From assembly GCF_002854065.1 (NCBI RefSeq), contig NZ_CP024147.1: a stretch of 64,000 nt of DNA, one strand, 5' to 3'. Below the pieces are notes generated by a model, which had not been told where the DNA came from, did no database searches, and saw only the letters and a program-made list of their open reading frames with translations. The number at the start of each line of letters is the position of its first letter. The stretch's first letter is position 1. The stretch is from Escherichia coli (GTDB lineage: Bacteria > Pseudomonadota > Gammaproteobacteria > Enterobacterales > Enterobacteriaceae). A program made the position numbers and the translations under genes. Below are positions 10,719 through 14,011 of this stretch, piece by piece.

Positions 10719-11549
10719 ATGTTTGTTCCGTTTCTCATTATGTTGCGCGAAGGACTTGAAGCCGCGCTGATTGTCAGTTTGATTGCCAGCTATCTTAAGC
10801 GTACCCAGCGAGGCCGATGGATTGGTGTGATGTGGATTGGCGTGTTGCTTGCCGCTGCGTTGTGCCTGGGCTTGGGTATCTTCATTAACGAAACCACCGG
10901 CGAATTTCCGCAAAAAGAGCAGGAACTGTTTGAAGGTATCGTGGCGGTGATCGCCGTGGTGATCCTTACCTGGATGGTTTTCTGGATGCGCAAAGTGTCG
11001 CGCAACGTCAAAGTGCAACTGGAACAGGCAGTCGATAGCGCATTGCAGCGTGGAAATCATCATGGCTGGGCGCTGGTGATGATGGTCTTTTTTGCCGTTG
11101 CAAGGGAAGGCCTGGAGTCGGTCTTTTTCCTGCTGGCGGCATTTCAACAAGATGTCGGGATCTGGCCGCCTCTGGGTGCAATGCTCGGTCTTGCTACTGC
11201 CGTGGTGCTCGGCTTCCTGCTCTACTGGGGCGGTATTCGCCTCAATCTTGGTGCATTTTTTAAATGGACCAGCCTGTTTATTCTCTTCGTCGCCGCAGGA
11301 CTGGCTGCAGGTGCCATTCGCGCATTTCATGAAGCCGGATTGTGGAACCACTTTCAGGAAATCGCCTTTGATATGAGCGAGGTGCTCTCAACTCACTCGC
11401 TGTTTGGCACGTTGATGGAAGGGATTTTTGGTTATCAGGAAGCACCGAGCGTCAGCGAAGTCGCCGTCTGGTTTATTTATCTCATCCCGGCGCTGGTGGC
11501 ATTTGCTCTGCCACCACGCGCAGGGGCGACAGCGTCTCGCTCCGCGTAG
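10719..11549 (+). CDS. efeU: EfeU ferrous-iron permease, FTR1 family (276 aa), apparently intact
   Basis: Starts MFVPFLIMLREGLEAALIV; both REGLE motifs present in one frame. Confidence 0.9.
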   Translation: MFVPFLIMLREGLEAALIVSLIASYLKRTQRGRWIGVMWIGVLLAAALCLGLGIFINETTGEFPQKEQELFEGIVAVIAVVILTWMVFWMRKVSRNVKVQLEQAVDSALQRGNHHGWALVMMVFFAVAREGLESVFFLLAAFQQDVGIWPPLGAMLGLATAVVLGFLLYWGGIRLNLGAFFKWTSLFILFVAAGLAAGAIRAFHEAGLWNHFQEIAFDMSEVLSTHSLFGTLMEGIFGYQEAPSVSEVAVWFIYLIPALVAFALPPRAGATASRSA

Positions 11550-11606
11550 CAAATACGACGCAAACTCTTGCTTAGTTACAACATACTTTAAAGGGATAGT
11601 CTCGTC

Positions 11607-12734
11607 ATGACCATTAACTTCCGCCGTAACGCATTGCAGTTGAGCGTGGCTGCGCTGTTCTCTTCTGCTTTTATGGCTAACGCCGCTGATGTGCCGCAGG
11701 TCAAAGTGACCGTGACGGATAAGCAGTGCGAACCGATGACCATTACGGTTAACGCCGGGAAAACACAGTTCATTATTCAGAACCACAGCCAGAAGGCGCT
11801 GGAGTGGGAGATCCTCAAAGGCGTGATGGTGGTGGAAGAGCGGGAAAATATCGCCCCTGGTTTTAGCCAGAAAATGACGGCGAATTTACAGCCTGGCGAA
11901 TACGATATGACCTGCGGTCTGCTGACTAACCCGAAAGGGAAGTTGATTGTCAAAGGTGAGGCAACGGCGGATGCGGCGCAAAGTGATGCGCTGTTAAGTC
12001 TTGGTGGTGCAATTACTGCATATAAAGCGTATGTCATGGCGGAAACCACACAGCTGGTGACCGACACCAAAGCCTTTACCGACGCGATTAAAGCTGGCGA
12101 TATCGAAAAAGCGAAAGCACTGTATGCGCCGACGCGCCAGCACTATGAGCGCATTGAACCGATTGCTGAACTGTTCTCCGATCTGGATGGCAGCATTGAC
12201 GCCCGTGAAGATGATTACGAGCAAAAAGCCGCTGATCCAAAATTCACCGGTTTCCACCGTCTGGAAAAAGCATTGTTTGGCGACAACACCACCAAAGGGA
12301 TGGATAAGTATGCCGACCAGCTTTATACCGATGTGGTCGATTTGCAAAAACGCATCAGTGAACTGGCTTTCCCACCTTCAAAAGTGGTCGGCGGTGCAGC
12401 CGGACTGATTGAGGAAGTGGCAGCCAGCAAAATTAGCGGTGAAGAAGATCGCTACAGCCACACCGATCTGTGGGATTTCCAGGCTAACGTTGAAGGCTCG
12501 CAGAAAATTGTCGATCTGCTGCGTCCACAACTGCAAAAAGCCAACCCGGAACTGCTGGCAAAAGTCGATGCCAACTTTAAAAAGGTCGATACCATTCTGG
12601 CGAAATACCGTACTAAAGACGGTTTTGAAACCTACGACAAATTGACCGAGGCCGACCGGAACGCGCTGAAAGGGCCGATTACTGCGCTGGCGGAAGATCT
12701 GGCGCAACTTCGCGGTGTGCTGGGGCTGGATTAA
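11607..12734 (+). CDS. efeO: EfeO periplasmic iron-uptake component (375 aa)
   Basis: [26 protein letters not shown] signal peptide; recognised sequence. Confidence 0.9.
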
Positions 12735-12739
12735 GCGTT

Positions 12740-14011
12740 ATGCAGTATGAAGATGAAAACGGCGTGAATGAACCGTCACGCCGACGTTTACTGAAAGGGA
12801 TTGGTGCGCTGGCGCTGGCGGGAAGTTGTCCGGTCGCTCATGCACAAAAAACGCAAAGTGCACCGGGCACGCTTTCACCGGATGCACGCAATGAGAAACA
12901 GCCGTTTTATGGTGAGCATCAGGCAGGGATCCTGACGCCACAACAGGCCGCAATGATGCTGGTGGCGTTTGATGTGCTTGCCAGCGATAAAACCGATCTT
13001 GAACGGTTGTTTCGCTTGTTGACTCAGCGTTTTGCTTTTCTGACTCAGGGCGGAGCGGCACCAGAAACGCCAAATCCGCGCCTGCCACCACTCGATTCCG
13101 GCATTCTTGGCGGCTACATTGCGCCCGATAATCTCACCATCACGTTATCGGTGGGTCACTCATTGTTTGATGAGCGCTTTGGCCTTGCGCCACAGATGCC
13201 AAAAAAGCTGCAGAAGATGACGCGTTTCCCCAACGACTCGCTGGATGCGGCGTTATGTCATGGTGATGTGTTGCTACAGATTTGCGCCAACACCCAGGAC
13301 ACGGTGATCCATGCGCTGCGCGATATCATCAAACACACGCCGGATTTGCTCAGTGTGCGCTGGAAGCGGGAAGGGTTTATTTCCGATCACGCGGCGCGTA
13401 GTAAAGGCAAAGAGACGCCGATTAATTTGCTGGGTTTCAAAGACGGCACTGCCAATCCCGATAGCCAGAATGATAAGTTGATGCAAAAAGTGGTGTGGGT
13501 AACGGCAGATCAGCAGGAGCCTGCGTGGACAATCGGTGGCAGCTATCAGGCAGTACGCTTGATTCAGTTTCGAGTGGAATTTTGGGACAGAACGCCGCTG
13601 AAAGAACAGCAGACGATTTTTGGCCGTGATAAGCAAACCGGCGCACCGCTGGGAATGCAGCATGAGCATGATGTTCCCGATTACGCCAGCGACCCGGAAG
13701 GGAAGGTGATTGCGTTGGACAGCCATATCCGGCTGGCGAATCCCCGCACGGCGGAGAGTGAGTCCAGCCTGATGCTGCGTCGTGGCTACAGTTATTCACT
13801 GGGCGTCACCAACTCCGGACAACTGGATATGGGGTTGCTGTTTGTCTGCTACCAGCACGATCTGGAAAAAGGCTTCCTGACAGTACAAAAAAGGCTCAAT
13901 GGCGAAGCGCTGGAGGAATACGTTAAACCTATCGGCGGCGGTTATTTTTTTGCGCTGCCGGGAGTGAAGGACGCGCACGATTATCTCGGAAGCGCATTAT
14001 TGCGGGTTTAA
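12740..14011 (+). CDS. efeB: EfeB Tat-exported DyP-type peroxidase / deferrochelatase (423 aa)
   Basis: Twin-arginine motif SRRRLLKG near the N-terminus; recognised sequence. Confidence 0.9.

Follow-up and report, generated by a model that had tools for sequence, protein, structure and literature searches.

Does the efeUOB operon of a given Escherichia coli strain encode a complete low-pH ferrous-iron uptake system, and what does an unbroken operon say about the descent of that strain? These questions are raised by a stretch of 64,000 nucleotides from contig NZ_CP024147.1 (NCBI RefSeq assembly GCF_002854065.1), referred to here in its entirety as the window, which carries efeU, efeO, and efeB (Table 1). 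We consider the operon in the window to be, with a probability of about 0.93, efeUOB (formerly ycdNOB) in its wild-type chromosomal form, from an E. coli other than K-12.

Reading frames and protein families of efeUOB

The open reading frame (ORF) listing and an independent re-translation both gave efeU, efeO, and efeB as uninterrupted + strand genes, with intergenic gaps of 57 nt (efeU to efeO) and 5 nt (efeO to efeB). An earlier reading of the same DNA, made from the letters alone (the sequence-only reading), had described an intact operon with a Fur box, for which it gave no coordinates, and an EfeU of 276 amino acids that contains both REGLE motifs in a single frame. This description held: all three genes are unbroken within the span it had given (10719-14011), no internal stop or frameshift was found upon re-translation of 10719..11549, and a predicted Fur box could be placed upstream of efeU. 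A GTG codon at 10710 is in frame with the efeU ATG, and a start at this codon would add three residues for a protein of 279 amino acids. The operon is flanked by putP and phoH, a neighborhood that is the same in K-12, O157:H7, CUWW06, and strain 100416.

The three proteins all exceed the curated NCBIfam cut-offs. EfeU scored 331.8 bits against the NCBIfam EfeU equivalog NF041756 (cut-off 255) and 351.8 bits against TIGR00145 (cut-off 303.8), and the Pfam FTR1 model covers residues 1–275 with 300 bits. Its two REXXE motifs, both with the sequence REGLE, are located within one uninterrupted frame; the first is invariant across 108 aligned EfeU homologues, and each position of the second is kept in at least 107 of the 108. 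Kyte-Doolittle hydropathy maxima were found at residues 5–23, 38–56, 70–88, 119–138, 152–170, 185–203, and 248–266, and as judged by hydropathy only, EfeU is predicted to cross the membrane in seven segments, the first and fourth of which hold the REGLE motifs. A sequence search of the Protein Data Bank (PDB) returned no solved relative of EfeU. EfeO scored 772 bits against NCBIfam PRK10378 (cut-off 297) and 481 bits against the NCBIfam EfeO equivalog. Its Pfam architecture comprises Cupredoxin_1 (residues 13–115) and Peptidase_M75 (residues 135–368), with an HRLE (HxxE) motif at residue 217, Cys41 and Cys103, and a GEEDRY loop, and the protein matches the solved E. coli EfeO structure (PDB 7wgu, E = 1e-228). 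EfeB, which scored 616.6 bits against TIGR01412 (cut-off 428), consists of Dyp_perox_N and Dyp_perox_C domains preceded by a twin-arginine signal (SRRRLLK at residue 13). It contains the GXXDG motif as GFKDG at residue 232 as well as D235, H329, and R347 (distal Asp/Arg, proximal His), and it matches the solved E. coli structures PDB 2y4f and 3o72 (YcdB) with E < 1e-220. The role of the EfeO motifs has been set out previously (PMC9174327).

Table 1. Coordinates of features in the window (position 1 is the first nucleotide of the 64,000)
Feature	Coordinates	Strand	Description
442-aa ORF	8209-9537	-	annotated as 'hypothetical' in every annotated record examined
Promoter-proximal conserved region	10591..10718	+	K-12 homology starts at 10591 (blastn)
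Predicted Fur box CGTAATGATAATCGCTATC	10641..10659	+	15/19 match to consensus GATAATGATAATCATTATC; 60 bp before the efeU ATG
CpxR-like box GCAAAGAAAAGTAAA	10667..10681	-	GTAAA-N5-GTAAA with one mismatch; next to the Fur box on its downstream side
efeU	10719..11549	+	Ftr1-type inner-membrane iron permease, 276 aa from ATG
REGLE motif 1	10746..10760	+	EfeU aa 10-14, first hydrophobic segment
GG, of which one G is missing in K-12	10824..10825	+	efeU codon 36, intact in the window; from alignment
REGLE motif 2	11103..11117	+	EfeU aa 129-133, fourth hydrophobic segment
efeO	11607..12734	+	periplasmic cupredoxin plus M75 (imelysin-like) protein, 375 aa
efeB	12740..14011	+	Tat-exported DyP-type haem peroxidase/deferrochelatase, 423 aa
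REP-like palindromic repeat cluster	14040..14160	+	3' of efeB; from reading of the sequence
IS1, 768 bp	17160-17927		9-bp duplication GCATAGGGG at 17151-17159 and 17928-17936

Comparison with K-12 and descent of the strain

The efeUOB locus of K-12 MG1655 was fetched and aligned to the window. In MG1655, efeU is annotated as a pseudogene (b4490, 830 nt), and the alignment identified a 1-bp deletion in codon 36, by which GGT turns into GTG and the codon after it into TGA, placing a stop at codon 37. The resulting K-12 product is 36 residues long and ends in ...RWIV, and the rest of the protein can be read only in another frame. The frameshift in K-12 efeU, which the sequence-only reading had claimed, was thus located by alignment. 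In papers that cite Grosse 2006 and Cao 2007 (PMC2808357; PMC7549933), the Efe system of K-12 is described as non-functional, and the missing G in codon 36 is probably the sole reason that K-12 lacks Efe activity.

The K-12 operon occupies the same locus between putP and phoH, and its Fur box and promoter-proximal sequence are identical to those of the window from 10591 onward. If the missing G is put back, a single residue (A221E) separates K-12 EfeU from that of the window, and EfeO and EfeB show three and five differences, respectively. At the nucleotide level, 14 substitutions were counted in efeU, 21 in efeO, and 23 in efeB, for a total of 58. In addition, K-12 lacks window positions 8062-10590 and has an unrelated 413 bp in their place (blastn). 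An intact efeU by itself argues only weakly against K-12 ancestry. The 58 substitutions and the 2.5 kb segment absent from K-12 point much more strongly to a non-K-12 origin, and on this evidence the further claim that the genome is not a K-12 derivative can be upheld.

Distribution of the locus in E. coli

The 3.6 kb efeUOB locus was found in 5417 of 5426 complete E. coli genomes. Genomes were assigned to the two forms of efeU by exact matches to an 81-mer or 82-mer, and the remaining genomes differ by point substitutions. The 81-mer spanning the K-12 deletion matched 368 of the 5417 genomes (about 7%). Among the deletion-bearing matches listed, 60 of 60 are laboratory strains, most of them named K-12 derivatives, including MG1655, DH5alpha, C600, DH1, J53, NCM3722, and descendants. 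The 82-mer representing the intact sequence of the window matched 3587 of the 5417 genomes (at least two thirds). For the species, an intact efeU is normal and does not set a strain apart, and the finding therefore says little. Intact efeUOB is the default in E. coli, the K-12 frameshift is a long-published quirk of the laboratory lineage, and the operon in the window is already known and ordinary. Its usefulness is as a sanity check, indicating a non-K-12 strain with a presumed complete low-pH ferrous-iron route, and the analysis yields exact coordinates for the K-12 lesion and the Fur box.

The allele of efeUOB in the window is a minority allele. Only 13 of the 5417 genomes reach 99% identity to it over 3.6 kb, and most are 95–99% identical. 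The set of near-identical alleles (window positions 10500-14100) comprises wastewater, bovine, and human isolates as well as TR01, which is labelled O157:H7; the TR01 allele is not the one seen in the typical O157:H7 genome examined. Seven matches are located on records labelled as plasmids.

Promoter region and flanks of the operon

In a custom scan of the 64 kb, the predicted Fur box is the sole site with four or fewer mismatches to the consensus, and about 0.1 such sites were expected from first-order Markov simulations. The box is identical in K-12 and O157:H7. By this promoter box efeUOB would be a member of the Fur regulon, and the operon has been placed among the core-genome genes under direct Fur control, with Fur binding and repression that depends on iron reported for CFT073 and K-12 (PMC7157518), and in the Fur-2 iModulon (PMC10164565). 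A Fur box at efeU has also been predicted in a strain of extraintestinal pathogenic E. coli (PMC4145685). Repression of the efeU promoter by CpxR has been described (PMC9600279; bioRxiv 10.1101/2024.12.09.627516). A promoter picked by eye, TTGTAT-N16-GATAAT, overlaps the Fur box; it was rejected as its -35 element matches at only three of six positions, and no transcription start is claimed for it.

Downstream of efeB, no canonical + strand intrinsic terminator was found in a scan of the sequence after 14011. An Rfam search over 7500-15500 returned nothing relevant to efeUOB. A match to naRNA4 at 14101-14160, in the REP-like (repetitive extragenic palindrome) cluster, was below threshold (34.8 bits compared to a gathering score of 59.5). 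Two features lie at phoH: a direct CTGTCAT repeat (CTGTCATCACTCTGTCATC) at 14189-14207, which resembles a Pho box and is located upstream of the gene, and a match to the Yersinia antisense small RNA Ysr251 at 15222-15415 on the - strand (189 bits, gathering score 100), antisense to its 3' end.

Likely function and alternative explanations

The EfeUOB system of O157:H7 was shown to be functional by Cao et al. 2007, as related in PMC7549933 and PMC9174327, which cite the work, and the title of that paper and the citing papers characterize the O157:H7 proteins as an acid-induced Fe2+ transporter. The operons of O157:H7 and the window are alike in gene order, spacing, protein lengths (276, 375, and 423 amino acids), and an identical Fur box. 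Of the 219 nt upstream, 217 are identical, and the same accessory segment is present between putP and efeU. The nucleotide difference is about 2%, and the substitutions amount to one in EfeU (A221E), two in EfeO (Q234K and D348E), and four in EfeB (K6E, V48D, A85T, and N413H), none of which is within a diagnostic motif. Synonymous and nonsynonymous codon differences number 16 and 1 for EfeU, 16 and 2 for EfeO, and 21 and 4 for EfeB. Residue 221 of EfeU is located between the sixth and seventh hydrophobic segments, and its alignment column is the most variable of its neighborhood, with N, G, Q, A, H, and E represented among the 108 homologues. A damaging effect of A221E was considered and rejected in view of this variability. 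An 81-mer around codon 221 matched exactly in 22 genomes, whose sources were human, cattle, chicken, mink, and baboon, and because the sequence is common to genomes from such varied hosts, A221E is regarded as an allele carried by a lineage, not as an error. From the diagnostic residues and the near-identity to the O157:H7 proteins, a working low-pH Fe2+ transporter, which the sequence-only reading had considered probable, can reasonably be inferred.

The steps by which such a transporter would operate are taken from published work on the family. If iron is plentiful, Fe2+-Fur would bind the box at 10641-10659 and shut the promoter, and CpxR would add repression outside acid conditions, such that the operon would be on when iron is scarce and the pH is low. 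EfeO, exported by the Sec system, and EfeB, exported with its haem via twin-arginine translocation (Tat), would then act in the periplasm, where ferrous iron would be captured and oxidized, with the cupredoxin and M75 sites of EfeO binding metal and the EfeB peroxidase serving as redox partner. The iron would be handed to EfeU, in which the two REGLE glutamate motifs in membrane segments 1 and 4 may line the translocation path.

Several results weigh against this account. A scan of the 64 kb for the Fur consensus with three or fewer mismatches gave no match, the box at efeU having four, and one-mismatch CpxR-like sites occur seven times in the window compared to 4.1 expected, so the box next to efeU is not statistically distinctive. 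A promoter scan of 10300-10718 found no sigma-70-like site and placed no transcription start, and the DNA upstream of 10591 differs from K-12 but matches O157:H7. Finally, the division of labor between EfeO and EfeB is still debated (PMC9174327).

The alternative that survives best accepts the intact operon and assigns it a main role other than low-pH ferrous uptake. EfeB would strip iron from haem in the periplasm for import by EfeU, or ferric iron bound to EfeO would be imported, as proposed for Bacillus subtilis EfeUOB. The NCBIfam name of EfeB is 'deferrochelatase/peroxidase', many of its PDB relatives were deposited as deferrochelatase, and PMC9174327 cites Letoffe 2009 for the removal of iron from haem and treats the role of EfeO as unresolved. 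Ferrous uptake is nevertheless compatible with such activities, which may represent an alternative or additional role, and the title of Cao 2007 and the papers citing it, with their acid-induced Fe2+ transporter, concern near-identical O157:H7 proteins. No sequence feature separates the two roles, and we regard a main role in haem or ferric iron import as improbable.

Considerably less credible is the explanation that this lineage has intact frames but a silent or defective system, whether through A221E, through other substitutions, or through the AT-rich accessory DNA next to the promoter, which ends 50 bp from the Fur box on its upstream side. The minority status of the allele would be consistent with such a defect, as would the composition of window positions 9538-10718 (about 36% G+C), since DNA of about 36% G+C is often silenced by H-NS. 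However, position 221 is highly variable and E is present in other homologues, synonymous changes far outnumber nonsynonymous ones, and O157:H7, in which the system works, has the upstream segment at 97.5% identity together with the 219 nt that contain two mismatches. We consider a silent or defective system very unlikely.

The explanation that an error of sequencing or assembly created the intact frame, by a spurious extra G in a K-12-type sequence, can draw on the fact that the key difference from K-12 is a single base within a short G run, but it was rejected as effectively refuted by the 58 further differences from K-12 within the three genes, and the 2.5 kb segment and the identical intact 82-mer in 3587 independent complete genomes also stand against it.

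The accessory segment and the pga operon

The efeUOB operon itself offers nothing new; the 442-aa orphan upstream of efeU and the doubly broken pga operon are more interesting. The segment at 8062-10590 is present in 645 of 5426 genomes (about 12%), including O157:H7, and its end is 50 bp before the Fur box. About 1 kb of non-coding DNA with 36% G+C separates the start codon of the 442-aa ORF from the efeU promoter region. As a weaker corollary, this AT-rich island might alter how efeUOB is expressed in strains that have it.

Close relatives of the 442-aa protein were found only in E. coli, and searches of Pfam and NCBIfam gave no match above threshold. Its N-terminal domain resembles that of the Salmonella effector PipB2, as indicated by a sub-threshold Pfam match (E = 0.0097) and a Foldseek match to 2lez (E = 6.9e-3, probability 0.99) in a part of the structural model with only moderate confidence. 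The C-terminal half consists of three repeats of ~60 amino acids, modeled with a predicted local distance difference test (pLDDT) score of about 90. The repeat region spans residues ~235-430 (window positions 8209-8830) and follows the pattern W..L....GG..KWA...GI....A..YL.N.GLT..G..RL; no tandem repeat was found in the ORF at the DNA level. An exhaustive profile search identified the repeat in proteins of up to 2136 amino acids, in three to about 10 copies, with P0129, P0135, P0140, P0144, P0148, and P0177 as the larger proteins. Several of the repeat proteins terminate in SET lysine-methyltransferase domains; these come from Salmonella bongori, S. enterica subsp. indica, Pantoea, and Paraburkholderia, and one of these fusions also has a weak OTU match. 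The repeat corresponds to no Pfam family and gave no convincing fold match in the PDB, and a literature search returned no account of either the repeat or the proteins that join it to SET domains. The PipB2-N-like domain and the SET-associated repeats tentatively suggest that the 442-aa protein could be an undescribed secreted (type III-like) effector, a possibility to which we give clearly less than even odds.

On the other side of the efeUOB locus, the pga operon has two breaks. An IS1 element splits pgaC after codon 17 and leaves an N-terminally truncated ORF of 412 amino acids at 15885-17123. The close relative strain 100416 is without this IS1 copy, and CUWW06 has an IS1-associated deletion at this position. 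The second break is in pgaA (- strand, ATG at 22429), where compared to K-12 a 1-bp deletion is found in codon 9 at ~22404-22405 (AGGT-CCCG versus AGGTGCCCG), and the only remnant is a TTG-initiated ORF of 792 amino acids at 20007-22385. The same gene of strain 100416 is marked 'frameshifted' by the Prokaryotic Genome Annotation Pipeline (PGAP). The pattern for pgaA is the reverse of that for efeU, with the gene intact in K-12 and broken in the window. Two further copies of IS1 are located downstream in the window, at 34940-35710 and 50888-51660. A tRNA-Ser(GGA) gene is located at 29445-29532, and collinearity with strain 100416 stops at about 29458; beyond that point strain 100416 has a tyrosine integrase gene and then the yersiniabactin gene cluster.

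Comparison with known iron-transport systems

The wild-type efeUOB operon of the window can be compared with two groups of known proteins in addition to its O157:H7 counterpart. The route proposed for EfeUOB would parallel that of yeast Ftr1p/Fet3p, an iron permease of the oxidase-dependent OFeT family. EfeU and Ftr1p share the Pfam FTR1 family over the full length, two REXXE motifs, and the character of a seven-segment membrane protein, and their family relationship has been stated previously (PMC9174327). The partners differ, as Fet3p is a multicopper oxidase and the partners encoded in the window, a cupredoxin-M75 protein and a DyP haem peroxidase, are unrelated to it. The second group consists of EfeM/EfeO of Pseudomonas syringae and the Algp7/imelysin-like M75 proteins. 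The C-terminal domain of EfeO matches PDB 7q1g and 3at7 (E about 1e-92 to 1e-96), and the HxxE and GEEDRY metal-site motifs are shared with these proteins, whereas E. coli EfeO has an extra N-terminal cupredoxin-like domain, the EfeO-I architecture.

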